Assembly (NCBI GenBank): GCA_963663225.1
Contig: OY760142.1
Location: 160,001 to 224,000 of the forward strand
Direction of reading: 5' to 3'
Origin: Nitrospirota bacterium
GTDB lineage: Bacteria > Nitrospirota > UBA9217
DNA: 64,000 nt
Shown here: positions 47,753-64,000 of the stretch, piece after piece
How positions within the stretch are numbered: the stretch's first letter is position 1
Layout of the letters: the number at the start of each line of letters is the position of its first letter
Translations under genes and position numbers: made by a program
The notes under the pieces: model-generated
What the model saw: the letters and a program-made list of their open reading frames with translations, nothing else
Databases searched by the model: none
What the model was told of the DNA's origin: nothing

Positions 47753-48790
47753 TTAAAAACCGGTCAACTTTAGTGCAAAGTACCCTTTTGAGAATCCTCC
47801 ATGAAGAGACAAGCTCGAGGCTTCCCACATATTAATCCTTTTTAATGAAAAAGTATCCGAAAGATCATTGACACCTATTTCCGTTGTAACGGCGTATTCA
47901 TATCCTGCTTCCTGAACCGCCTTCTTGAGCGCAGAATCGATATTTCCGCATGGATACGAAAAGCTGTTTACCTGCTGCCGGGTGTTCTCTTCTATAATCT
48001 GTTTTGAATCATACAGTTCATGTTTCAACTGTATTTTGTCTATCATGGTCGGGTTGTCATGACTGCAGGTGTGAGAGCCGAATTGACCATGATCATGCAT
48101 CGACGCGATCTGATTCCAGCTCATTATAGGATTGCTACTTTTTAATTTTTCGTGGTCTGTCTGCAACTTTTCGTGGAGTATTTTGAGAAGTGAATCTACT
48201 TTTTTTGAATCCCACTCATTAACTCTGGCAAAGAAACCAGACGGGTTTTTCTCAAATTCCTCGAACAACATTGCTACTTCAGAGTTTGTCCGCTGTATAA
48301 GTGTCTCTTTGCTGCCCCATTGCTGCATCTGAATAAGGTAATAATACAATTGATCCCACCAGAACGGATTCTCATCTTTGCTACCGATTTTATCGGCAGT
48401 GAGAAAGAATGTCGCGGTCAAATCCAGTTTTTTAAGCACTGGGTAGGCATTCCGATAGTTATCTTCATAACCGTCGTCAAAGGTAATAATCAGCGAGTTG
48501 GAAGGTAACTTATTGCCGGGATAATTTTTTTTTAAATCCTGGAACGAAAGAACAGTATACCATTTCTTAATAAAGCGTAGTTGATTCTCAAAACTCTCTA
48601 CTGTTGTAAACAGATATGGCAGCGACGCGTCAAGTTTACTGAGCGATTGGCCAGTCACCCTGTGATAGGTTATGATGGTAAGCCGATTACCGGCAATATT
48701 GTTCAGAAAACGGACAAAATGAAATAATCCGGTGTATAGATATAGCAAACCAACGGCTCTTCGAACAGTTTGTTTTATTTTAGTAACCAC
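47753..48790 (-). CDS. Polysaccharide deacetylase (CE4, with helical insert)
   Basis: TYHRV, ITFDDGYEDN, GSHTCSH and FSYPCG motifs. Confidence 0.88.
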   Translation of the reverse strand: MVTKIKQTVRRAVGLLYLYTGLFHFVRFLNNIAGNRLTIITYHRVTGQSLSKLDASLPYLFTTVESFENQLRFIKKWYTVLSFQDLKKNYPGNKLPSNSLIITFDDGYEDNYRNAYPVLKKLDLTATFFLTADKIGSKDENPFWWDQLYYYLIQMQQWGSKETLIQRTNSEVAMLFEEFEKNPSGFFARVNEWDSKKVDSLLKILHEKLQTDHEKLKSSNPIMSWNQIASMHDHGQFGSHTCSHDNPTMIDKIQLKHELYDSKQIIEENTRQQVNSFSYPCGNIDSALKKAVQEAGYEYAVTTEIGVNDLSDTFSLKRINMWEASSLSLHGGFSKGYFALKLTGF

Positions 48791-53366: not shown

Positions 53367-54521
53367 TCAGTTTTCTCTGGTGAGAATTACCTGTTTAAAG
53401 ATTGTCTCATAATTTTCTATCATATGTTCCAGGCTGAATTTTTCTTCCACCCTTTTTTTTGCGGCCGTGCTGAACTGTTGCGCCGTTATCGGATCATCCA
53501 AGATGGACCAGATGGCTTCCGCCAGCGCGTGGGAATCTCCGGGCGGGACCAAAAAACCCGTCTCACCCTGGACAACTGCTTCGGCATTGCCGCCGACCGT
53601 TGTTGCCACTACCGGCTTGGAAGAAGCCATGTATTCCAAAATCGTGTTTGAAAAACCTTCACTTAATGAAGCCACAACGGCAACATCGAATATGGAAATT
53701 ATTTCCGGAACATCTCTGCGCCTTCCCAGAAAATGCACATTCCGGGAAACACCAAGTTTTTCGGCCATTGTCTGCATACTGCTGATTGAATAACCCATGT
53801 CAGTTGTATCACTGCCGGCGATGAGAAACTCAACATCGGATCTTCTTTTGCAAATACGCGAAGCGGCCTCAATGAGATACGTAATGCCTTTTATGCGGCG
53901 AAGATTTGCGACGAGTCCCACTACCGGATGAGCAGGGTCAATACCGATTTCTTTTTTAATATCTGAGCACGTTCTGCGGCACGTATTGTATTCCCGCAAA
54001 TCAACTCCATTGTAAATCGAAACTATCCGTTTTTCAGGAAACCAGCCTTGTTTAACTATCTCCTGTTTGACTGCATCGCATACGGTTATCTCCCGATCAA
54101 AAAAACCACCGATAAGTTTGTACGCCATCTTATGATGCGAGCGCGTTTTGAAGCCCATGTCTCTTCTGCTTGAAATAACCGGAATATTGCATGCTTTAGC
54201 AAGGATTAAGCCGTAAAAATCTGAAGTTTCGTGATACGTTACGATGAGCGAAATATTCTTATTTTTAATCAACCTGCGCAGAAAAAAGATATTTTTTATC
54301 CCATTGACAGTATAGATCCCACCCCGCAAAAGGTCAAAGACTGAGTGGCCTTCTTCGCGCATTTCCTGAGCAAGCTGGCCGGAATAGATGCAAGCCATGT
54401 AAAGATTAAATTTCTCTTTATCAATACCTTTTAGCAGCTGTGTAATATTGCGTTCAGATCCCGCCATTCCCATGAACGTGTCAGTCAGGATCAGCACATT
54501 ATATTTATTTGTCATTTCCAT
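53367..54521 (-). CDS. Glycosyltransferase family 4
   Basis: AGSER; IKG; EGFSNTILEYMA (EX7E motif). Confidence 0.9.
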   Translation of the reverse strand: MEMTNKYNVLILTDTFMGMAGSERNITQLLKGIDKEKFNLYMACIYSGQLAQEMREEGHSVFDLLRGGIYTVNGIKNIFFLRRLIKNKNISLIVTYHETSDFYGLILAKACNIPVISSRRDMGFKTRSHHKMAYKLIGGFFDREITVCDAVKQEIVKQGWFPEKRIVSIYNGVDLREYNTCRRTCSDIKKEIGIDPAHPVVGLVANLRRIKGITYLIEAASRICKRRSDVEFLIAGSDTTDMGYSISSMQTMAEKLGVSRNVHFLGRRRDVPEIISIFDVAVVASLSEGFSNTILEYMASSKPVVATTVGGNAEAVVQGETGFLVPPGDSHALAEAIWSILDDPITAQQFSTAAKKRVEEKFSLEHMIENYETIFKQVILTREN

Positions 54522-54545: not shown

Positions 54546-55244
54546 TTACTTTTCTTCTTGTTTTTTGTCTATGGTGTCTGGTTTTGTGCCAGATGATTCT
54601 TGGTTCGGTTTCGAGAAATCGACGGAAAGCAAATGACATTTTAAATCTTTTCTGAATGTTTTCGAGGCCATGATATCCTGCACTTCGAATTTATTCTTAC
54701 CTTTAAATAAATAGTCAAACTTCGTCAGGCCCTGTCGCTCCCATTCCATGAGGCATTTTTGCTTATATTTTTCTACTGTTGAAACACGTATTGCGGGATT
54801 TCCTATCATGATACTGCCCGGTTTTACATCGTTGATAACCGTAGCATAGGGGCCGATGATTGAATTTTTTCCAATTCTAACTCCGGCGGATATAGTAGCA
54901 TGAGCTCCTATAAAGCAATTATCTTCTATGATGACTTTTCCAAAAAAACGTAAATGCGGGAGCTCGTCTCTGAAAATTACGCTCGCGCCGTCATGCGTCA
55001 TGAGATCCACGCCATACGCTATGGAAACACTATCGCCGATTTCAACCAGATAAGGTTCTGAACTCAAGCTTCTAATTTGAAGAAAACAATTTTTCCCGAC
55101 TATTGCGCCCTGTTTTCTGAATTTTTCTGCAATCGTAACGTCATTGTAGCGGAATCGTTCGTAAATTCTGTGAAGAATGTAAGCAACCATGTACAAGGGT
55201 GCGAGCAAAATTCTTAGCTTTTTACAGTACATAGACACCTGCAA
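54546..55244 (-). CDS. Hexapeptide-repeat (left-handed beta-helix) acyltransferase
   Basis: SEPYLVEIGD, THDG, IEDNCFIG, GVRIGKNSIIG and GNPA motifs. Confidence 0.88.
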   Translation of the reverse strand: MQVSMYCKKLRILLAPLYMVAYILHRIYERFRYNDVTIAEKFRKQGAIVGKNCFLQIRSLSSEPYLVEIGDSVSIAYGVDLMTHDGASVIFRDELPHLRFFGKVIIEDNCFIGAHATISAGVRIGKNSIIGPYATVINDVKPGSIMIGNPAIRVSTVEKYKQKCLMEWERQGLTKFDYLFKGKNKFEVQDIMASKTFRKDLKCHLLSVDFSKPNQESSGTKPDTIDKKQEEK

Positions 55245-55273
55245 TATCCATTAAATTTTTTACCGCAAACGCA

Positions 55274-56371
55274 CTATTTAACGTCGCAACGGAAATTTCC
55301 CGAATAATCCACGCTACCATTTTTGGCGAGTACCACGAGGTTCATTTTTCTAAAACTCGGCACTAAACCCAGCGGTGCATAATCTTCAAAATTCAGATAT
55401 GTTGCATTTTCAAATACTACTCCCTTCGCGTTCATCTCTTCCGCACGTTTTACGGCTTCATACAGGAGTGCTGCTATATGCGGCATGCTGCATTCTTTAA
55501 AAGGATTTACAATCAGGAAGTCGACAACAATAAAAAATTGTGTTTTGCTTTCCTTGATCGTTTCTAACGGATAAAAATTTATAAAAGCGTTTATTTCACC
55601 ATCGCGTTCTACTACAAAAGTTCTGTGCGTGGGATGGCCAAAACAGTAGTGTTTGAGCTGATCTTCCGCCATGGTCAGCATAAAATGCGGTGCATCGGGA
55701 ATTTTATTAAACAATTGCGTCAACTGTCCGGCATCAGCTTCTTCTGCAATTCTTATTCTGGCAGAACCGGGCAACGGAGAATTGTCTTGCAGGTATTTTT
55801 TCAAACGTGCGGGCATGACTACACACTGGTTGAATGTTGAATAAGTTTTTCGCTTCACCTGAAAATATTTTGCCGACAGTTTATCACCTATGCTTTTTAA
55901 TGGCTTTCCTTCTTCAATATAGGCAAATGTCGCGCTGCAGTCGGGCTCATAGAAATCTGCATCAGGGTGAAATAAATGAGTATGTTCGGCCAACTGCATT
56001 ACACAATCCATCCTGTGGCGTAAATCAAGCCGGGGAGAAACTGCAAGGTGGGTGTTTAAATATGAATTCATTACATTCCCATTACAGATCATTTTTCTAG
56101 GGAGAAAACTCTGAAAGGCCACTAATTCATCATCAAGGAACGCTCCAAGAAGTATGTTTTTGTCAGTATTGGGTCCTCCATACAACCACAGTAAATAGTC
56201 CTGGGGAAATACCGGGCTTCCTGTTTTGCCGTACAATTGGCTCCAGATAGAATTCAAAAATGTGCCTATTTTCTGCATTTCTTGCAATGAAAGACGCGAA
56301 AATTTCAGCAATCGTTCATGCCGCAGCAATTTTATAAAAGAAGTAAGTGGTTGTCCGTTTTTAATTTGCAT
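55274..56371 (-). CDS. Tandem-GNAT acyltransferase resembling glycylpeptide N-myristoyltransferase (NMT)
   Basis: Colinear NMT-like segments FPQDYLLWLYGGP, LVAFQSFLP, THLAVSPRL, RIAEEADAGQLTQLF, MAEDQLKHY and TFVVERDGEINAFINFY (compared from memory). Confidence 0.6.
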   Translation of the reverse strand: MQIKNGQPLTSFIKLLRHERLLKFSRLSLQEMQKIGTFLNSIWSQLYGKTGSPVFPQDYLLWLYGGPNTDKNILLGAFLDDELVAFQSFLPRKMICNGNVMNSYLNTHLAVSPRLDLRHRMDCVMQLAEHTHLFHPDADFYEPDCSATFAYIEEGKPLKSIGDKLSAKYFQVKRKTYSTFNQCVVMPARLKKYLQDNSPLPGSARIRIAEEADAGQLTQLFNKIPDAPHFMLTMAEDQLKHYCFGHPTHRTFVVERDGEINAFINFYPLETIKESKTQFFIVVDFLIVNPFKECSMPHIAALLYEAVKRAEEMNAKGVVFENATYLNFEDYAPLGLVPSFRKMNLVVLAKNGSVDYSGNFRCDVK

Positions 56372-56421
56372 GTATTATGTCCAAGATGTCGCCATGGTCG
56401 CTCAAGGTGAATTATTTCGGT

Positions 56422-58050
56422 CTATTTGTCCGACGTTCCGTAAACGCTGCTGAGCAGCGCTCTGTCTATTTTCTTGCTTTTATTTTTGGGAAGCTGTTCG
56501 AGTCTGACAAGATGCTGCGGGATCATATATCGGGGCAGGCTCTTTTTCAGGTTGTGGTGAATCTCTTCATGGCAGTCCGCGGCCGCCTCGTAAACAAGTT
56601 TGAGTGACTTAATTTCACCGTTTTCCCGGACCGGGATGACAACATTACCCGTCACTGAATCAACTTTTGAAACAACTCTCTCGATTTCCTGCAAATTGAT
56701 TCGATATCCGAAAAATTTGATCTGACTGTCCTTGCGGCCATGGATGCAGTAGCCGACCCCGGGAATAAAAGACGCGACATCCCCGGTCCTGTAAAACGGC
56801 ACCCCGTGCTCATCCCTTCCAAAAACCTTGTTCGTTTTGTCAGGATCATTCCAATATCCGATAGACAAATGAGGAGAATGGACGATGAGCTCTCCTCGCT
56901 CTTCATTTTCCGGGAAGTCGGTTTTGTCAAGCGTGAAACGGATTCCCATGATCGGGAAACCGATGGGAACGGCGCCTCCGTCCTCGCCCTTGTAATCGTT
57001 CAGCGAGAAAACAGCCATCAGTGACGATTCAGTAGATCCATAGCCGTTGATAAACTTTGCGTTGGGCAGCATGGCCATCACAGTTGCCAAAATATTCCGG
57101 TTGGCGGGTTCTCCGCCGAGCAAAACAGTTTTTAGCCCCTGAAGATGCTCCGGCTTGATCAGACCGCTGTTTACGAGAGCGTTCAGCGTCGAGGTGACCA
57201 GCAGCGTTCTGGTGACTTTGTACGTATATGTAAGGTCCAGAATGTCCTTCGGAAAAATTACTTCTTCTGGGTAAACAGCAAGTGTTCCACCTGAACACAG
57301 CGGTGGAAATATGTCAGCGGTTGAGGCGGAGAATGCGGTTGCATTCAGCCCACTGGTCACGTCATCCACGTTATAACCCAGGGTATCGATCACCCACTGG
57401 ACATTCTTGAAAATATTGCCGTGGGGAATCATGACGCCTTTCGGCTCGCCGGTGGAGCCTGACGTGAAATAAATCATCGCCAGATCATTCGGCAAAAGGT
57501 CTACTTTTTGTGGATCATCCCGCCGCGCGCTTCCGAACGGCAATTTGACGAAATCGCGTTCTTCGCCATCGTCAAGCAGAACGGCCTGAAAACGCCCTGG
57601 AGATAGTTCCGCACATTTTCTGAACAGGTCAGCTGAAAAGCGGTCGGCAAAAACGCGAAGCGGCGATATTTCAATCAATAAATCAGTCAGTCTGGCCGGC
57701 GGTGTTTTGGTGTCCAGAGGAACAACGACTCCTCCCGCTCTTATGATGCCGATCATGGCGGCATACAGATAGATTGACCTGTTCATCATGAGTGCGACAC
57801 GATCGCCTTTTTTCAGACCACTCTCCTGCAGATACTGTGAAACATCGAGAGTCAGTTCGCGCAGTTCATGATAGGTCCATGCTTTGTCATACAGCCGTAT
57901 CGCGGCTTTTGATGCGTGCAAAGCAAACATCTTATCGAGCAGATCCATGATGGTAGAAACGGCTGATTGATTTTCTGCTTGTTTCTGGTTTATCGCGGTG
58001 TTTTTTTCCATGGGATTCTTTTTGACAATTGCATTGTCCTGAAGTTCCAT
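56422..58050 (-). CDS. Stand-alone adenylation-domain (DltA/NRPS-like) carrier-protein ligase
   Basis: A3 YFTSGSTGEPKGV; A5 NGYGSTE; A7 YRTGD; A8 GRKDSQIK..GYRI; A10 KIDR. Start moved to MELQD, just after the upstream stop. Confidence 0.88.
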   Translation of the reverse strand: MELQDNAIVKKNPMEKNTAINQKQAENQSAVSTIMDLLDKMFALHASKAAIRLYDKAWTYHELRELTLDVSQYLQESGLKKGDRVALMMNRSIYLYAAMIGIIRAGGVVVPLDTKTPPARLTDLLIEISPLRVFADRFSADLFRKCAELSPGRFQAVLLDDGEERDFVKLPFGSARRDDPQKVDLLPNDLAMIYFTSGSTGEPKGVMIPHGNIFKNVQWVIDTLGYNVDDVTSGLNATAFSASTADIFPPLCSGGTLAVYPEEVIFPKDILDLTYTYKVTRTLLVTSTLNALVNSGLIKPEHLQGLKTVLLGGEPANRNILATVMAMLPNAKFINGYGSTESSLMAVFSLNDYKGEDGGAVPIGFPIMGIRFTLDKTDFPENEERGELIVHSPHLSIGYWNDPDKTNKVFGRDEHGVPFYRTGDVASFIPGVGYCIHGRKDSQIKFFGYRINLQEIERVVSKVDSVTGNVVIPVRENGEIKSLKLVYEAAADCHEEIHHNLKKSLPRYMIPQHLVRLEQLPKNKSKKIDRALLSSVYGTSDK

Positions 58051-58054
58051 CGCT

Positions 58055-59266
58055 TTACACGACAATTTCAGCAGGCAGCGCGTGACTGAGAAAATGAAGC
58101 GGGCTTGCTGAAAAACCATATGCTCCTGAATTAAAGAAGAGGAGAACGTCGCCTTCCTCGATGTCGGCAGCCAGTTCAATATCAGTTGCCAATACATCGT
58201 CGGGAATGCAAAGGCTGCCGGTTATTGTGTACCTGATTTCAGCACCGGATTTTTCCTCTCCTGACAGTGTATCAATCTCGTAGTTACGCCGTATTACCTG
58301 TCCAATACCGCCGGCCGCCGCATAGTGTTGATGCATACCGCCGTCAACGACAAGAAATTCACGAGCGTAGCCCTTCTTGCGATACAACACGTGAACCGCG
58401 TAAAGCCCGCATTCCGCCACCAGAAAGCGGCCTGGCTCGATGATGAACGTGGTGTTTCTGAGCGGAGCCGTAAGCTCTTCATCGGCAAAAAGTCTGGAGA
58501 GACCTTCCCTAAGCGCCGCAAGATCGAGCGGGGGTTTTTTCCCGAACATATCTATCCCCCAGCCGCCGCCAAAGTTTATTTTTTCGATGACAATTCCGTA
58601 TTTGTTCGCAATTTCGACGCTTTTTTCGAGAATAAAGCGATAATTGCTCAAAATCTTGTCTGATTCCTGATATTGTGAACCAAGATGCAGGTGCAGGCCC
58701 CGGAAGCGGAGCATCTCCGGGTGGGATTTGATTACGGCAATGGCTTCCTCCAACTGGTCTTCAGGAATGCCGAACTGGGTATCTCCTCCCATCTTCATGG
58801 CTGAGGCCGCAGGACGCGTTTTGGGGTTTACCCTGATGCCCACGTTTCCGGCTTTCTTTTTTGCGCGGCAAAGTTTCGCTATCGTGTGTATTTCTGAAAC
58901 GCTTTCAGCATTTATGCAGGAAACACCGGCATCGATCGCCTGCGATAATTCATCAAGGGTTTTTCCGGGACCGGTGAATTCTATGCTATCTGACGAAAAT
59001 CCGGCAATCAGTGCCGCCGCGAGTTCCCCCCCCGAGGCCACGTCGGCACCCATGCCAAGTGCGTTCATTGTTCTTAAGATGTCATTATTGGGATTGGCCT
59101 TGAACGCATAATGGATTTTGAAATGCTCTGGCAGACAATCTGACAGGTCACGATACTTTTTTTCAATGACCTTTTTAAAATAACAAAAAACCGGAAGCTT
59201 TCTCCCATCAAGAAAAGCGAGAAGTTCCGATTTTGGTATCAGCTTGTAAAATTCTTGCTTGTTCAT
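58055..59266 (-). CDS. Fold-type III PLP-dependent decarboxylase (BtrK-like / exosortase-A-system-associated type)
   Basis: HYAFKANP, DVASGGE, FTGPGK, HLGSQ, EPGRFLV, GSLCIPDD and GAYG motifs. Confidence 0.88.
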   Translation of the reverse strand: MNKQEFYKLIPKSELLAFLDGRKLPVFCYFKKVIEKKYRDLSDCLPEHFKIHYAFKANPNNDILRTMNALGMGADVASGGELAAALIAGFSSDSIEFTGPGKTLDELSQAIDAGVSCINAESVSEIHTIAKLCRAKKKAGNVGIRVNPKTRPAASAMKMGGDTQFGIPEDQLEEAIAVIKSHPEMLRFRGLHLHLGSQYQESDKILSNYRFILEKSVEIANKYGIVIEKINFGGGWGIDMFGKKPPLDLAALREGLSRLFADEELTAPLRNTTFIIEPGRFLVAECGLYAVHVLYRKKGYAREFLVVDGGMHQHYAAAGGIGQVIRRNYEIDTLSGEEKSGAEIRYTITGSLCIPDDVLATDIELAADIEEGDVLLFFNSGAYGFSASPLHFLSHALPAEIVV

Positions 59267-60863
59267 ATTTGTTTTTTATTTCCGCGTATCGAACTTTGCC
59301 GTTTTCAGCCAGGGGCAGACTTTTCACAATGTTGATGTTGTCAGGCACCATATACGACGGCAGGCGTTCCTTCATATGTTTGATAAGGTCTTCTTTTTTT
59401 AGACCGTCACAGGAAATGATTTCCGCTATTATGTTGTGGCCTTTCCGATCATCCGGAATTCCCACTACCGCGCAGTGTGTCACTCCAGGATGTTCCAGAA
59501 TGCAGCTTTCCACTTCTTTGGGATAAATTCTGAATCCTGAGCTCTTGATCATTCCATCTTCACGTCCCAAAACATACAGAAAACCATCGCGGTCGATTTT
59601 TCCACGGTCACCGGTAAAAACCACCTTGCCCGCAGAGATCGTTGGCTTTAAACACGCGGGTATCTCTGCAAGTTTTTTCTGCGAACCAGCAACTTCATTG
59701 ATATACCCAAGCATGGTGCCAGCACCGTAATGAATTATTTCTCCTTCTTCGTCCGGGGATGCGATTTGGGTATTGTCTTTCAAAATAAAAATGCGAGTCC
59801 CCTTAACCGGACGGCCTACCGATGTCATTTTACCATCATAGTCGTTCGCTTTTAATATGCCGCTTCTGAACGTTTCACTCTGCCCGTATGTTTTTATTAT
59901 TTTCGTCCTCGGGAAATAATGCTTCAACTGTTCCAAATATTTTCGTGCGAGGTCTCCTCCGGAAACAGTGATGTATCGCAATGTTTTCGTATCTTCCGGG
60001 AAGCCGTCTTCTCGGGGAACAGAAAGCATATCGGCCCAGATGGTAGGCACTGCGGAAATCCCTGAGATATTAAATCGTTTGATTGCCGTTGCAATATCCC
60101 GTGGAAACCAGGAATTCAAAATAATAAGATGGGCGCCCGATAAAATGCTCGAAAAGAGCTGATTCAGTCCGACATCAAACGAAAAAGGCAGCAGGCTGAG
60201 CAAACAATCTTCCCTGTTAATTTCAAAATCTTCAATTTCTGTGGTGACTCTGACGTACAGATCGTCGCGATCGATTAACACACCCTTTTGCTCACCTGTC
60301 GATCCTGAAGTAAATAAGCAGTATCCGCGTTTTTTCTGGGAATTTGAGAATGGAGCATGTATCCGGGGATCGCCCATGCCGTCAATTGCTGCAGAAGCGC
60401 CGGATTGTTGAGATTCCTGGACCCTGCGAGCCGGGATAAAATTCAAAAACTCGATTCCATCGCTACAAAGAGCAAACCGCATATTCGATGTAATAGCATC
60501 TTCAGACGACATAATCTGCTTTACCGTGCTTCTGTTGAGAATGATAAATTTAGGTTTGGCAACTCTCGCCAATCTTATTACGTGAGGTGGCTTCAGCCTC
60601 GAATTCAATGAACAGGCGGCGCCGCCGGCCAAAATGGCACCAAGAATGGTTACTGCTGCATCGATGGACTTGTTCATGTAACTAGCAACCAGATCATTCG
60701 GCTGCATCCCCTCTCTGGTAAAGAAGTCTGCAACTTCTTTTACTTTTCGAGCCAGCATGCCATAGGTCAGGGTTTGGAGTGTTCCCCCGGGCAAACAGTG
60801 GGAAATCGCAGCTTTGTCATTGTGTCGCGCAAATGCCTGCTCTATGCGTCGGGAAAGAATCAA
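59208..60863 (-). CDS. AMP-forming acyl ligase (exosortase-A-system-associated type)
   Basis: FTSGSTGEQKG, LPFSFDVGLNQL, TYGQSETFRS, FTGD and GREDGMIKSSGFRI motifs. Confidence 0.9.
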   Translation of the reverse strand: MILSRRIEQAFARHNDKAAISHCLPGGTLQTLTYGMLARKVKEVADFFTREGMQPNDLVASYMNKSIDAAVTILGAILAGGAACSLNSRLKPPHVIRLARVAKPKFIILNRSTVKQIMSSEDAITSNMRFALCSDGIEFLNFIPARRVQESQQSGASAAIDGMGDPRIHAPFSNSQKKRGYCLFTSGSTGEQKGVLIDRDDLYVRVTTEIEDFEINREDCLLSLLPFSFDVGLNQLFSSILSGAHLIILNSWFPRDIATAIKRFNISGISAVPTIWADMLSVPREDGFPEDTKTLRYITVSGGDLARKYLEQLKHYFPRTKIIKTYGQSETFRSGILKANDYDGKMTSVGRPVKGTRIFILKDNTQIASPDEEGEIIHYGAGTMLGYINEVAGSQKKLAEIPACLKPTISAGKVVFTGDRGKIDRDGFLYVLGREDGMIKSSGFRIYPKEVESCILEHPGVTHCAVVGIPDDRKGHNIIAEIISCDGLKKEDLIKHMKERLPSYMVPDNINIVKSLPLAENGKVRYAEIKNKYEQARILQADTKIGTSRFS

Positions 60864-61132
60864 GCTTCATCTCCCGCCAATTTCTTTTCAATAAAATACG
60901 ATATTTTGCTTATGGAGTCGAAATTGTCCAAAGAAAGTTCCGCCGGATAAAAAATAACGTCAAATTTCTCTGAAAAAGCCTCAATAATCTGGATTGCTCC
61001 GAGAGAGTCGATTAGCCCGCTGTCGATCAGCGAATCCTCTTCACCAATACTAGTACCACTCCCATTGCCATCCTTTGCGGCAATCTCTGTTATTATTTGT
61101 TTAACCGCTCCTTTTATTTCTGCTAACTCCAT
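60860..61132 (-). CDS. Acyl/aminoacyl carrier protein
   Basis: Acidic 90-aa protein; phosphopantetheine site GLIDSLG; NFDSI tail (DltC-like). Confidence 0.9.
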   Translation of the reverse strand: MELAEIKGAVKQIITEIAAKDGNGSGTSIGEEDSLIDSGLIDSLGAIQIIEAFSEKFDVIFYPAELSLDNFDSISKISYFIEKKLAGDEA

Positions 61133-61194
61133 GCTGAATGCCCCCCATTCAACGATTATTTTTATAATGATGCAGCAATGTATATTTTTTTGAC

Positions 61195-61893
61195 TTACCT
61201 TTGCAGGAGATCCCGCAAGAGGTTATCCAGTATCTCATACGCTTTTTGGTTTAAGTGTGTTCCGTCTCCACTGTTTAACTCATCACGAAGAGAACGCTCG
61301 CGGTCGCTTTTCCGTAATGCAGCCTCGAGGTCAATCAGCGTGATTTTCTCTTTTTTGGCGTAATCCCGAATCCAGTCATTGTAGGCCAAAATGCCTTCTA
61401 TTTTGCCTTGCACAGCCTCCGCGCGTGCGCGTGTAACAGGGACAACGGTCGCCAATATCACCTCTACGCGCGCGTCACGAATCCGCTTGACCCATTTTTG
61501 CACCAGTTCCTGCTGAAGGGCGATGTCGCCTGGAAAATAGGACGAACATTCTTTAATAACAATAATGTTCGGCAACACGGGTGACGGCCGGAAAAAACCC
61601 TTTATGTATGACAGCGTAAAGTGAAACTTTCTTTTCGGACGCATCAGGATTTCATCGATTGCTTCCGTTTTATCAAACTGATACACCGCTATAAATTCGA
61701 CGCTATGAGCGCGGTCACCCGTCCGCTGGGAATACTCTGCAAGTTTCCATGCCTTCCCGATGGAAGCCCCGACAAACATCACGTTTTTTTTGGAGGCATC
61801 CGCTTTACCCTGATCCTGGATTTGCGTACAACCGGTCAGCACAAGCAAGCCTGCCGCTACAACGAAGAATATTTTTTTTACGGCCTTAATCAT
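61195..61893 (-). CDS. SGNH/GDSL-fold lipoprotein (esterase or periplasmic acyltransferase)
   Basis: Lipobox LTGC; block I FVGASIG; block V DGTH. Confidence 0.78.
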   Translation of the reverse strand: MIKAVKKIFFVVAAGLLVLTGCTQIQDQGKADASKKNVMFVGASIGKAWKLAEYSQRTGDRAHSVEFIAVYQFDKTEAIDEILMRPKRKFHFTLSYIKGFFRPSPVLPNIIVIKECSSYFPGDIALQQELVQKWVKRIRDARVEVILATVVPVTRARAEAVQGKIEGILAYNDWIRDYAKKEKITLIDLEAALRKSDRERSLRDELNSGDGTHLNQKAYEILDNLLRDLLQR

Positions 61894-61901
61894 AGAGAAC
61901 C

Positions 61902-62501
61902 TCACGCAAGGTCATCCTTGAACAATTTCAGCAAATGTTGTTTTAAATGTTGGCTATTTTGGCGTGCATATTTTGTGGACCACCAATTTTCGTCATTTTC
62001 CAGCTGTATGTCGGGTGGCTTTTGCATCTTCCATCGCTCAAGACATTTTTCCTTGTATTTCAATACAGAACCGAACGGCCGCGCAGGCACTCCCATAACA
62101 ATAGTATCAGGGGGAACATCCGCGATCACAACTGAACCGGCACCGACAATCGAATTTTTTCCGATTCTGATACCCGGAAACAGGATGGCGTTCTGACCGA
62201 TGATGCAATTATCTTCTATTACGATGGGACCGAATATCTGAAGGTCCGGCACCTCATGCCTGAAAACCCAGGCGCCTCCATCGTGAGTCATGAATTTCAC
62301 TCCCTGAGCAATACCGACGTGATTTCCGATTTTAATGAGATACGGTTCAGTGCCGAGCTGGGTTGGAATTATTCTGCAATGCTCTCCTATCTGGACCCCT
62401 TGTTTTCTGAAATATTCCGCGATAGTATCCGCATTATACTTTCGAAGTTCATACGCTTGCAGCAACCGGGCTACAACTTTTTTAAGCACCTTAAAAATCA
62501 T
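61902..62501 (-). CDS. Hexapeptide-repeat acyltransferase (paralogue of 54546-55244)
   Basis: TEPYLIKIG, THDG, IEDNCIIG, GIRIGKNSIVG and GVPA motifs. Confidence 0.88.
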   Translation of the reverse strand: MIFKVLKKVVARLLQAYELRKYNADTIAEYFRKQGVQIGEHCRIIPTQLGTEPYLIKIGNHVGIAQGVKFMTHDGGAWVFRHEVPDLQIFGPIVIEDNCIIGQNAILFPGIRIGKNSIVGAGSVVIADVPPDTIVMGVPARPFGSVLKYKEKCLERWKMQKPPDIQLENDENWWSTKYARQNSQHLKQHLLKLFKDDLA

Positions 62502-62527: not shown

Positions 62528-64000
62528 CTAGTTTACAGCGTGTGCGTGAGCACGGTCGCTTTCGTCTGCCGTTAAAATGAGATCAACCAGCTCTTTTCTG
62601 GTTTCCTCAAAAAAATCTGGAGTCCATTCCGATTCTCCATCCTGACGACAGACTGGTTCTCCGGATTTGCCTCGGATTCTTGAGAAAAAGTCTTCATAAC
62701 GGGAAGTGTCTATTCCTTTCCGCTTCAATACAGAAACCCGCTTTACAAGCTGATACAGCAGCTTATGGTCATTAATCCCCTCGCGGATTGCTTCCCATTT
62801 GAGCGTCGGCACCGGACCGGACGGAGCTGGATAGGCCAGATACAGATCGTGCCCCGGTGTATCCGCCTTTTCCGGGAGGCCGCTTGCATTCTGCGTATTC
62901 TGAAATGTCCAGGATGACATTCCGTCAATGTTCTTCATCCACGTGTAATATCCGTACACATACCGTGCATAGGCGGGATTATCACATTGAGTAGTTATAT
63001 TATTATTGTATATCCAGTAACGTGAACCATTTTGATGGGCGGCCTGCATCTCGTGTTCATTCATTTCCGCAGAGCACAGATAATCAACCGGCGAGAACTG
63101 ATCGTATCGAAGAGACGTAAGCATTGTTTTTCCACCCGACTCTTTTACGGCCTTAAGCAGCACGGGCGTTACAGCATATCGTTTCTTCTGTAAATCCTGC
63201 TGTGAATCATCCGGTTCATCGATAGGTAAAAATATGACCGGTGGGCAGTGATTTTCTTTTGCAAATTCCGTAACTGTTCTGACAAGATGACGTAGACGCT
63301 CCTCGTGTACTTTTTGATCAAAACCTTTTATGTTTCCCGGATGCTTCGGTTTGGCAGTTTGGATAAGATGTCCCATATACCAGATGACAGGCTTTGTAAA
63401 TCCGGTGTCTCGTGCCGCGAGAAGAGCGGCGAAAACATCGTCCAGAACCAGGGTGCCGTCATCCCGGGTAAGAGCGACGAAGGGAGAATGGATTGAAAGC
63501 GTAGTCATGCCATGCTCTCTATAGTTTTTCAAAACTGCTCGCGCCGAGCGCCGGAGTTCGTTCTTCTCTTTCTCATTCCATGGAAAGACAAGCTCCGTAA
63601 ATTCGTACGTCATGAGCATGAAATAGTCTTTATCCGGGATATCTTCTGTAATAATGGGGAGAACCATAATCTGGAGCGGTATTGTTTTACTCTTCCCATA
63701 TTGCGGCAAAACCGTTATTGTTCCCGTGTACTTGCCCGGCAGAACGGATTGATCAATTTTTGCTGTTAGCCAGAAACGGCAATGACCTCCTTTTTTAACG
63801 GAAGTCTTGCTCTTAGATCTGATCAGGGCAGGGAGCCGCCTGAATTCTCCTGGCGGGAGGCCTGTCGAATCCTCTACTGATTCGACAACCCCGATTTTAA
63901 TTTTTTCTTTTGCGATGGTCCCCTGCGGGCCGTTCAAATCTTCAATTGCTAATTTTACCGTTCCGAGGTTCCTGCTAGAAAATAAGGAAATACTGATTGG
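62528..64000 (-). CDS. DUF4091/GH123-like glycoside hydrolase, partial (5' end beyond the window)
   Basis: Frame is open to the window edge; PGKYTGTITV; acidic pair IDEPD; C-terminal YP...GP.PTLKWEAIREGINDH. Confidence 0.6.
   Translation of the reverse strand, partial: PISISLFSSRNLGTVKLAIEDLNGPQGTIAKEKIKIGVVESVEDSTGLPPGEFRRLPALIRSKSKTSVKKGGHCRFWLTAKIDQSVLPGKYTGTITVLPQYGKSKTIPLQIMVLPIITEDIPDKDYFMLMTYEFTELVFPWNEKEKNELRRSARAVLKNYREHGMTTLSIHSPFVALTRDDGTLVLDDVFAALLAARDTGFTKPVIWYMGHLIQTAKPKHPGNIKGFDQKVHEERLRHLVRTVTEFAKENHCPPVIFLPIDEPDDSQQDLQKKRYAVTPVLLKAVKESGGKTMLTSLRYDQFSPVDYLCSAEMNEHEMQAAHQNGSRYWIYNNNITTQCDNPAYARYVYGYYTWMKNIDGMSSWTFQNTQNASGLPEKADTPGHDLYLAYPAPSGPVPTLKWEAIREGINDHKLLYQLVKRVSVLKRKGIDTSRYEDFFSRIRGKSGEPVCRQDGESEWTPDFFEETRKELVDLILTADESDRAHAHAVN

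Follow-up and report, generated by a model that had tools for sequence, protein, structure and literature searches.

A candidate carrier-protein-based side-chain pathway, paired with an N-myristoyltransferase-type protein, in a Nitrospirota exopolysaccharide operon

We describe here eight genes in the middle of one long polysaccharide operon of a Nitrospirota bacterium, the core of which we read as a candidate carrier-protein-based pathway for an acyl side chain of the polysaccharide. By the window we mean the whole stretch of DNA that was analysed, 64,000 nucleotides of GenBank contig OY760142.1 (G000:C1:160001-224000), which belongs to a 3.26-Mb single-contig genome of 98.99% completeness whose closest public relatives are metagenome-assembled genomes (MAGs) of Nitrospiraceae. 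An earlier reading of the letters alone, referred to below as the original prediction, had joined the eight genes into one acyl carrier protein (ACP)-based assembly line. We could confirm all eight open reading frames (ORFs), which are co-directional on the minus strand, together with their boundaries and the domains assigned to them. In order of transcription they are:

61902..62501, minus strand: hexA, a hexapeptide (left-handed beta-helix) acyltransferase of 199 amino acids (aa); Hexapep_2, 37.4 bits (cut-off 27)
61195..61905, minus strand: an SGNH/GDSL-fold lipoprotein of 236 aa; Lipase_GDSL_2, 37.0 bits (cut-off 32.9)
60860..61132, minus strand: a dedicated ACP of 90 aa; PP-binding, 26.6 bits (cut-off 20.8)
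59208..60863, minus strand: lig1, a VinN-like adenylate-forming ligase of 551 aa; AMP-binding, 193 bits, and AMP-binding_C, 67.5 bits
58055..59266, minus strand: dec, a BtrK-like fold-type III pyridoxal phosphate decarboxylase of 403 aa; Orn_Arg_deC_N, 151 bits, and Orn_DAP_Arg_deC, 53 bits
56422..58050, minus strand (ORF open from 58197, 591 aa): lig2, a stand-alone adenylation enzyme of the non-ribosomal peptide synthetase (NRPS) type; AMP-binding, 228 bits
55274..56371, minus strand: NMTl, a double Gcn5-related N-acetyltransferase (GNAT) of the N-myristoyltransferase (NMT) type, 365 aa; NMT_C, 19.5 bits (cut-off 27.9)
54546..55244, minus strand: hexB, a hexapeptide acyltransferase of 232 aa; Hexapep, 41.9 bits

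For comparison we used a Nitrospiraceae MAG locus (L003), which holds the entire arrangement from a second, upstream carrier protein (ACP0) to the Fem-like genes downstream and in which most proteins are 86-98% identical, as well as 29 metagenome loci that were fetched with the NMT-like family as bait; all counts given below are conditional on an NMT-like gene. The eight genes are tightly packed. Overlaps of 4 bases join hexA to the SGNH gene and the ACP gene to lig1, lig1 and dec overlap by 59 bases, and the other gaps measure 24 to 62 bases; here and in related loci, the reading frames of lig1 and dec overlap by 35-59 bases. For lig2, a Met codon at 58050 or 58011 fits the L003 orthologue better than the one at 58197, which lies inside the dec gene, and yields a protein of about 529-542 aa. 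A promoter/terminator scan found 12 terminator-like sites against 12.1 expected from shuffled sequence, which is the chance level.

Carrier protein, ligase 1 and decarboxylase

The phosphopantetheine serine of the ACP is Ser43, and Gly39, Asp42 and Ser43 are invariant in all 12 aligned carrier proteins. The best NCBIfam match of the ACP is DltC (27.6 bits, under the cut-off of 68), and the carrier proteins also match the ornithine-lipid and cispentacin ACP families weakly. The nearest family of lig1 is TIGR03098, at 345.2 bits and below the cut-off of 592.35; for comparison, lig2 scores 173.6 bits against this model and the ligases of the canonical loci (f17) 598.9 and 635.9 bits, and lig1 itself scores 247 bits against a long-chain acyl-CoA ligase model.

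A more specific relationship emerged from the pocket of lig1. When the specificity-pocket region alone, a segment of 131 residues, was searched against all solved chains, the sole matches at E <=1e-5 were two VinN sequences (3wv4/3wv5 and 3wvn). The alignment with VinN is gap-free through the beta13-beta14 loop and places an Asp, a Ser and an Arg of lig1 on VinN D230, S299 and R331, with Val at the position of F231 and Phe at that of K330. As described in a review (PMC11253843), VinN has a shortened loop with K330 and R331, bulkier residues at positions 231 and 299, and D230 acting on the beta-amino group, features which permit the binding of 3-methylaspartate or aspartate 'as a beta-amino acid'. 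We scored lig1 as carrying the VinN-type hallmarks, namely the D230 equivalent with a bulky residue next to it, Ser at position 299 and a shortened Lys/Arg beta13-beta14 loop, with the loop length taken from the VinN alignment. Moreover, 7 of 7 orthologues, among them an Acidobacteriota protein with 40% overall identity, agree at each of the ten pocket positions that we located through motif anchors. This conserved, VinN-like pocket favours aspartate side-chain loading and hence beta-alanyl-ACP after decarboxylation, and we propose that lig1 loads an acidic amino acid, most likely aspartate by its side-chain carboxyl group, onto the ACP.

The best solved relative of dec is BtrK, the L-glutamyl-[BtrI ACP] decarboxylase, with an E value of 2.3e-79 and 270 bits over residues 12-402; the next solved match reaches 150 bits, and the best chain named as a diaminopimelate decarboxylase 142 bits. 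The top NCBIfam family is TIGR03099, at 353.4 bits, although its cut-off of 478.45 is not reached. Against the lysA model (TIGR01048) dec scores 248-249 bits, below the cut-off of 297.9, and a separate, true lysA with 518.1 bits to this model is encoded at G000:C1:990880-992103. Judged by these scores, dec is not the housekeeping LysA. BtrK is likewise the best match (298 vs 191 bits) of a canonical XrtA-type decarboxylase taken from a different Nitrospirota genome, and the likeness to BtrK thus holds for the wider TIGR03099 family.

Like the decarboxylases of the BtrK, VinO, FlvO and CtaF kind, dec is closer to BtrK than to diaminopimelate decarboxylases and is encoded beside a dedicated ACP and a loading enzyme. 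In such pathways, glutamate or aspartate is attached to an ACP via its side-chain carboxyl group, after which BtrK, CtaF or FlvO removes the alpha-carboxyl group to give gamma-aminobutyrate or beta-alanine, as outlined in PMC11350588; VinO is described as acting only after thioester formation (PMC11284099), and CtaF as inactive on the free substrate (PMC7183216). We propose that dec, too, acts on an ACP-tethered amino acid. The original prediction had likened the decarboxylase step to that of BtrK, which agrees with these comparisons: the ligase, ACP and decarboxylase resemble the ACP-dependent Btr and Vin systems, and dec stands apart from the housekeeping enzyme.

Ligase 2, the NMT-type protein and the conserved module

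Lig2 is a stand-alone adenylation enzyme and carries the A10 lysine (Lys517). It scores 275 bits against TIGR01733 and 216 bits against DltA (cut-off 476), and has no special similarity to any single solved stand-alone enzyme. Its occurrence varies: among 22 informative loci, a complete lig2 stands upstream of the NMT-like gene in 11 and a remnant in 2, lig2 is absent with dec adjacent in 7, and neither gene precedes the NMT-like gene in the remaining 2 (L035 and L040), while L027 and L042 contain two full copies with different pockets. A decayed-looking lig2 is seen in L032:3343-3745 and L033:2036-2438 as two fragments (query residues 31-123 and 489-538) between dec and the NMT-like gene.

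The pocket of lig2 varies as well. Its relatives keep the amine-binding Asp in four different pocket combinations, and the pocket of one such Asp-type relative finds its best solved matches in the second LgrA A-domain (62 bits) and DltA (50 bits), which we take to activate Gly and D-Ala, respectively. In the lig2 proteins of the window and of L003, Ser replaces this Asp, and the pocket of the former has weak solved matches, headed by 4-coumarate ligases at 33 bits. Since the amine-binding Asp is missing, a non-amino acid is the more likely substrate, and the second acid in this genome is unlikely to be an alpha-amino acid. The substrates that VinM activates are Ala, Ser and Gly (PMC11284099), and by analogy the pattern of lig2 would fit an enzyme like VinM, which would attach a second small acid, specific to the lineage, to the freed amino group. 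The original prediction had cast this enzyme as one that caps or extends the acyl group, a role with which its optional presence and variable pocket across relatives are in line.

The relationship of NMTl to NMT is remote, with 13-16% identity, and with Pfam only the sub-threshold NMT_C match listed above was obtained and none to PF01233, so that the two-domain arrangement of NMT was not recovered at this level. A word-indexed search of 5.8 billion clusters returned 36 relatives of NMTl, none of them functionally named. A profile search of 1.84 billion representatives returned 134 matches at E <=0.001, 36 of them at E <=1e-30, and the weaker matches include a true NMT (P0209, E 3.8e-13; Pfam NMT 152 bits, NMT_C 162 bits) as well as bacterial-length proteins with an above-threshold NMT N-domain. 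An AlphaFold (AF2) model of NMTl, built on 35 sequences (pLDDT 86.2, pTM 0.85), found NMT in all matches listed by Foldseek, to rank 50, with E values of about 1e-17 and TM scores of 0.64-0.68. An independent fold search aligned the model with yeast NMT at a Z score of 26.6 (root-mean-square deviation 3.2 over 315 residues); the next tandem GNAT reached 21.8, and FemX and FemA 13.8-14.3. The alignment places residues 7-365 of NMTl on residues 67-455 of yeast NMT and thereby ends on the last residue of both proteins. All 35 family members end at an identical, conserved short motif, and the position of the chain end is taken from the alignment, the last five residues of the model having a mean pLDDT of 65. 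As reported in PMC12219266, the C-terminal carboxylate of NMT enters the active site as the catalytic base, and NMT-type predicted structures from bacteria and archaea were described in 2025 without a function.

By profile and structural model, NMTl is a true remote homologue of NMT, which upholds the naming of this protein in the original prediction. It has no FemAB, FemAB_like or Acetyltransf_6 Pfam match that would make it a member of FemABX. We infer that NMTl may install or cap a carrier-borne acyl group on a primary amine. A complex prediction for NMTl with the ACP gave a score of 0.00 and was run without controls, and it speaks neither for nor against binding. We also noted that NMTl is 70% identical to its orthologue L003:12881-13993 while the flanking genes are 86-96% identical, which faster evolution or allele replacement could explain. 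A protein-atlas look-up for NMTl led to generic bacterial double-GNAT clusters, some with NMT matches, which we regard as leads only.

The arrangement around the NMT-like gene is conserved. Directly after it stands hexB, at 60-70% identity, in 20 of 22 informative loci (the exceptions being L035 and L051), and directly before it stands lig2, its remnant or dec, again in 20 of 22. The ACP gene directly precedes lig1 in 8 of the 9 loci that reach that far (exception L036), dec follows lig1 in all 15 loci that hold any lig1 sequence, and seven loci carry a tandem pair of NMT-like copies.

The two hexapeptide genes and the SGNH gene differ in this respect. HexA is a paralogue of hexB (51% identical), and a hexA-like gene after hexB was found in 2 of the 29 metagenome loci (L039 and L041). 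Acyl-ACP serves as the donor for hexapeptide enzymes such as LpxA and LpxD; hexB is closer to enzymes of the Maa/LacA/QdtC type, which at about 40 bits are its nearest relatives of solved structure. The SGNH protein has a lipobox that ends at Cys26 and a Ser48/Asp214/His217 triad that is invariant in 3 of 3 homologues, and shows weak GDSL matches among solved structures. Homologues of it accompany the cassette only in L003 and in one of the 29 metagenome loci (L036), where the gene does not adjoin that of the ACP. Two candidates were rejected: a 238-aa gene before the ACP gene in four related loci encodes a GNAT and is not an SGNH homologue, and a 102-aa ORF in L036 is not an ACP. The core module thus comprises the ACP, lig1, dec, optionally lig2, NMTl and hexB, and the SGNH protein and hexA are accessory. 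Of the assembly line of eight genes that had been predicted, the core order recurs in L003 and in most of the 29 metagenome loci, and the SGNH gene and hexA fall outside the conserved module.

The trio of ACP, ligase and decarboxylase also exists by itself. In five genomes of another Nitrospirota family, a canonical XrtA-type ACP-TIGR03098-TIGR03099 set occurs without lig2, NMTl or hexB and adjoins DegT-like, GT4-like and Wzy-like genes. In an Acidobacteriota MAG (L005:6638-11215), the trio, whose decarboxylase is 46% identical to dec, stands directly after a gene for a membrane-bound O-acyltransferase (MBOAT) and is followed by genes for a small GNAT and a Fem-like protein; by its gene content, the putative donor-making trio is paired differently here, in a Dlt-like manner. 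Proteins of 371 aa (L022) and 337 aa (L005) encoded next to a trio showed no relation to the NMT-like family in a single-sequence profile comparison, a method of low power. Across the phylum, dec was detected at E <=1e-60 in 8 of 401 genomes, our own included, and in 3 of 162 genera, which marks its module as a patchy accessory module.

Operon setting, proposed pathway and alternatives

Downstream of the cassette follow genes for a glycosyltransferase of family 4 (GT4), three Acetyltransf_6/Fem-like proteins, a GT2 glycosyltransferase, polysaccharide deacetylases of carbohydrate esterase family 4 (CE4), Wzx and Wzy, as well as for a PglC-like initiating transferase, a PseC-like sugar aminotransferase, a formyltransferase and a PglF-like dehydratase. 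The context genes that we refer to are:

62528..64000, minus strand, with the rest at L010:1-612: a protein of about 694 aa whose 3' part lies in the window, which it runs off; it precedes the cassette and has only weak GH123_N matches
53367..54521, minus strand: a GT4 glycosyltransferase; Glycos_transf_1, 137 bits
49901-53326, minus strand: three Acetyltransf_6 genes downstream of the cassette; Pfam Acetyltransf_6
47753-48790 of the window: a CE4 polysaccharide deacetylase with a hydrophobic N-terminus and no clear signal peptide

Several of these neighbours recur. A GT4 homologue of 46-57% identity is found in 12 of the 29 loci and stands directly after hexB in L024, L029, L038, L045 and L046, and after hexA in L039. 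Homologues of the CE4 deacetylase at 44-45% identity are present in L024, L039 and L045, in L024 and L045 just after the hexB-GT4 pair, and weaker ones (24-26%) in L023, L032, L033 and L038. The protein of about 694 aa has homologues upstream of the cassette in L023, L036 and L042 (56-58%) and in L003 (92%).

Upstream, past the end of the window (L010), lie a third hexapeptide gene, a WbuX-like amidotransferase, a HemK-like methyltransferase, a second ligase-ACP pair, an AsnB-like amidotransferase and an XrtA/PEP-CTERM-type export set (TIGR03016, 03018, 03007, 03027 and 03015). The second pair (L010:3232-5144; G000:C1:227232-229144) is found beside the HemK-like methyltransferase and the WbuX-like amidotransferase and without a decarboxylase; its ligase, lig0, scores 492.4 bits against TIGR03098, below the cut-off of 592.35, and has the same Lys-Arg pair in its pocket loop as VinN, and its carrier protein, ACP0, has 120 aa. 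Despite the XrtA/PEP-CTERM-system families in the operon, no exosortase was matched in the genome by TIGR03109 or PF09721. The PEP-CTERM model matched nothing, control genomes included, and that search is uninformative. We had considered that an amine-bearing side chain might be the nucleophile for PEP-CTERM anchoring, in the way that a Fem-built pentaglycine serves sortase, and dropped this idea for the present genome because no exosortase was found in it.

We lean, by a small degree, towards reading the core of the cassette as a thiotemplated, that is carrier-protein-based, side-chain pathway inside the exopolysaccharide operon, a reading drawn from sequence comparison. In a first step, lig1 would adenylate an acidic amino acid, most likely L-aspartate via its side-chain carboxyl group, and load it onto the dedicated ACP. 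Dec would then remove the free alpha-carboxyl group on the ACP to give an omega-aminoacyl thioester, which would be beta-alanyl-ACP or, less likely, gamma-aminobutyryl-ACP from glutamate. Where lig2 is present, it would activate a second small acid and, as VinM does, put it on the new amino group; in most relatives this second unit would be an alpha-amino acid. Finally, one of NMTl and hexB would take the acyl group off its phosphopantetheine arm and place it on a primary amine within the repeat unit, which a 4-amino sugar or a de-N-acetylated hexosamine would provide, and the other would cap or acetylate, and these two roles may be swapped. The first two steps are well supported by homology and conserved gene order, and the third draws its support from analogy and from the way in which lig2 varies; for the fourth, we infer both the installing enzyme and the acceptor. 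The operon holds a 4-amino sugar pathway and CE4 deacetylases and would therefore have two ways to make primary amines. In addition, both the Vin and the Btr pathway protect the free amine of their omega-aminoacyl thioester, as described in PMC11284099 and PMC7183216, which makes a capping role for NMTl or hexB plausible.

Several points weigh against this pathway. BtrK uses glutamyl-ACP, and the match of dec to it cannot separate aspartate from glutamate, so that the call for aspartate comes from the VinN-like pocket alone; both lig1 and dec also score too low for the curated cut-offs of the NCBIfam families nearest to them. The donor for NMT and most GNATs is acyl-CoA rather than acyl-ACP, and that NMTl accepts a carrier protein is an assumption, while the solved relatives of hexB are plain O-acetyltransferases and hexB may just acetylate a sugar. 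An NMT-like gene occurs without the cassette in 2 of 22 informative loci (L035 and L040). Finally, with NMTl as the bait, our counts are silent on how frequent the trio is without NMTl, as it occurs in L005 and the XrtA-type loci.

The alternative that we consider improbable, yet the best of the remaining explanations, is that the cassette yields a small molecule unconnected with the polymer, for example a non-canonical thiotemplated metabolite or a lipo-amino acid, and has the polysaccharide operon only as its location. All characterised relatives (Btr, Vin/Flv and Cta) make secondary metabolites, the carrier proteins have their weak matches to the ornithine-lipid and cispentacin families, and enzymes of the HMG-CoA synthase/MaoC, acyl-CoA dehydrogenase and PALP types are encoded in addition in related loci. 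However, the genes lie mid-operon between glycosyltransferase and export genes, on the same strand and with gaps of <=62 bases, the cassettes of the metagenome loci likewise have GT4, Fem-like, Wzx, Wzy and deacetylase genes as neighbours, and the ORFs scanned include no polyketide synthase (PKS) or NRPS module, thioesterase or exporter of another kind.

A second alternative retains the carrier-borne acyl group and assigns it to a different acceptor, with NMTl acylating the N-terminus of a protein, for instance a surface or export protein, rather than a sugar. The NMT fold and conserved C-terminus would suit such a role, the acceptors of NMT being protein N-terminal amines (PMC12219266), and genes for secreted proteins or lipoproteins lie nearby. 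Yet the NMTl gene is always found among sugar-modifying genes, no conserved candidate substrate protein accompanies it, and other double-GNATs among the structural matches act on amino sugars (glucosamine N-acetyltransferases and MshD), so that we hold a protein acceptor to be quite unlikely.

The original prediction had also drawn an analogy to the Dlt and Pat/Alg systems, in which a cytoplasmic aminoacyl-ACP would feed a membrane acyltransferase and the SGNH lipoprotein would esterify the finished polymer outside the cell. Its attraction lies in the DltA score of lig2, in DltC as the best family of the ACP, in the lipobox and intact catalytic triad of the SGNH protein, and in the MBOAT gene that adjoins the trio in L005. 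In this genome, however, MBOAT (PF03062) has 0 matches at 98.99% completeness, while control genomes did match; the Dlt scores are far below the cut-offs of 476 (DltA) and 68 (DltC), the SGNH gene travels with the cassette only in L003 and L036, and no DltD-family match was seen in Pfam and NCBIfam scans of the window proteins. We consider this analogy, which the data did not bear out, a very unlikely account of the cassette. Just as unlikely is that dec supplies an amine by acting on free diaminopimelate, ornithine or aspartate and that the ligases are ordinary acyl-CoA synthetases, as the scores of dec to lysA (248 bits) and of lig1 to the long-chain acyl-CoA ligase (247 bits) might suggest, given the separate lysA above its cut-off, the lead of at least 120 bits by which BtrK outscores all other solved chains, the contiguity of the ACP, lig1 and dec genes with the lig1/dec frame overlap also seen in related loci, and the inactivity of CtaF, a characterised relative of this class, on the free substrate as described in PMC7183216.

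Comparison with known systems

A close parallel to our proposed pathway is the VinN-VinL-VinO-VinM-VinK set of vicenistatin biosynthesis and its fluvirucin counterpart (FlvN/L/O/M/K), which as described in PMC11284099 has the same ANL ligase, ACP, Orn/DAP-type decarboxylase and second adenylation enzyme. The pocket of lig1 keeps the equivalents of VinN D230, S299 and R331 and the loop length, and most relatives of lig2 are of the alpha-amino-acid type with a pocket like those of small-amino-acid A-domains, comparable to VinM. In contrast, the cassette has no PKS, and no VinK-type acyltransferase was found among the ORFs scanned with Pfam; here a double GNAT of the NMT type and a hexapeptide transferase act as the downstream partners, within a polysaccharide operon, in a host of the Nitrospirota type rather than an actinomycete. 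Butirosin biosynthesis (BtrI, the ACP, with BtrJ, BtrK, BtrH and BtrG) provides the best solved relative of dec, matched over its full length, and an aminoacyl group on an amino sugar would be the end product in both cases. The loader differs, being an ATP-grasp enzyme in the case of BtrJ, according to PMC7183216, and an adenylate-forming ligase here, and so does the acceptor, which is an aminoglycoside there and a proposed polymer repeat unit here.

The closthioamide pathway (CtaD/CtaE/CtaF with CtaH/CtaI/CtaG) also converts aspartate to beta-alanine on a carrier protein, as described in PMC7183216, and has two parallel carrier-loading branches in one locus, and our operon likewise has a second ACP-ligase pair upstream. 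In the same account, CtaD is an iterative ATP-grasp enzyme and CtaG a transacylase with a cysteine-protease fold, and neither family was seen here. The nearest named families, TIGR03098 and TIGR03099, are hypothetical equivalogs labelled 'exosortase A system-associated' and share the ACP-ligase-decarboxylase order (f17 loci). Their canonical loci are without lig2, NMTl and hexB, while the window proteins score below the cut-offs and the genome has no exosortase match. A search of the full-text literature found no functional study of the TIGR03098/TIGR03099 set.

With eukaryotic NMT and the bacterial NMT-type structures described in PMC12219266, NMTl shares the double-GNAT fold, aligned end to end, and a conserved C-terminus. 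The setting of NMTl differs in that it suggests a short aminoacyl group as the donor and an amine of a sugar as the acceptor, and not myristoyl-CoA and a protein. In the lipid A logic of LpxC and LpxD, a hexosamine first loses its N-acetyl group, and a hexapeptide-repeat enzyme then acylates the amine from acyl-ACP. The joint occurrence of a CE4 deacetylase, an ACP and hexB in the present loci is similar, yet hexB is closer to the Maa/LacA/QdtC type and the deacetylase belongs to CE4 and not to the LpxC family.

Thiotemplated decarboxylation of aspartate or glutamate is already established in secondary metabolism. What the present locus contributes is a Vin-like second adenylation enzyme with a diversifying pocket and the tight pairing with an NMT homologue and a dedicated hexapeptide transferase. 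We tentatively put forward, as a possibility that we regard as rather doubtful, that NMTl is the first NMT-type enzyme from bacteria to which a job can be assigned, using its C-terminal carboxylate as the base to N-acylate a repeat-unit sugar amine with a beta-alanyl (or X-beta-alanyl) group directly from the carrier protein. If true, load, decarboxylate and extend chemistry of the Vin/Btr style would have been taken over for the decoration of exopolysaccharides across uncultured anaerobes, the 'exosortase A-associated' ligase and decarboxylase families, described roughly 20 years ago, would make amine-bearing side chains on surface polymers, and eukaryotic NMT would descend from glycan- or small-amine-acylating enzymes. 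The pathway would give concrete chemistry, from aspartate to beta-alanyl-ACP, an optional second unit and N-acylation of a sugar amine, to families whose NCBIfam names derive from association only, and would provide bacterial NMT-type proteins with a genomic context and a candidate substrate class. It predicts a zwitterionic or amine-bearing exopolysaccharide substituent in Nitrospirota-type and other sediment and sludge bacteria, which would alter charge, adhesion and floc behaviour. Moreover, the variety of lig2 pockets and the varying copy number of this gene suggest a natural system that diversifies polysaccharide side chains.

Lastly, we observed additional acyl-building or acyl-trimming genes by the cassette in L038:13143-16101, L045, L024:2289-4760, L023:11929-12936 and L026:9934-10773. 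They encode a hydroxymethylglutaryl-CoA (HMG-CoA) synthase with two MaoC-type dehydratases, an acyl-CoA dehydrogenase, a PALP-fold enzyme right after hexB, and an M28 peptidase.

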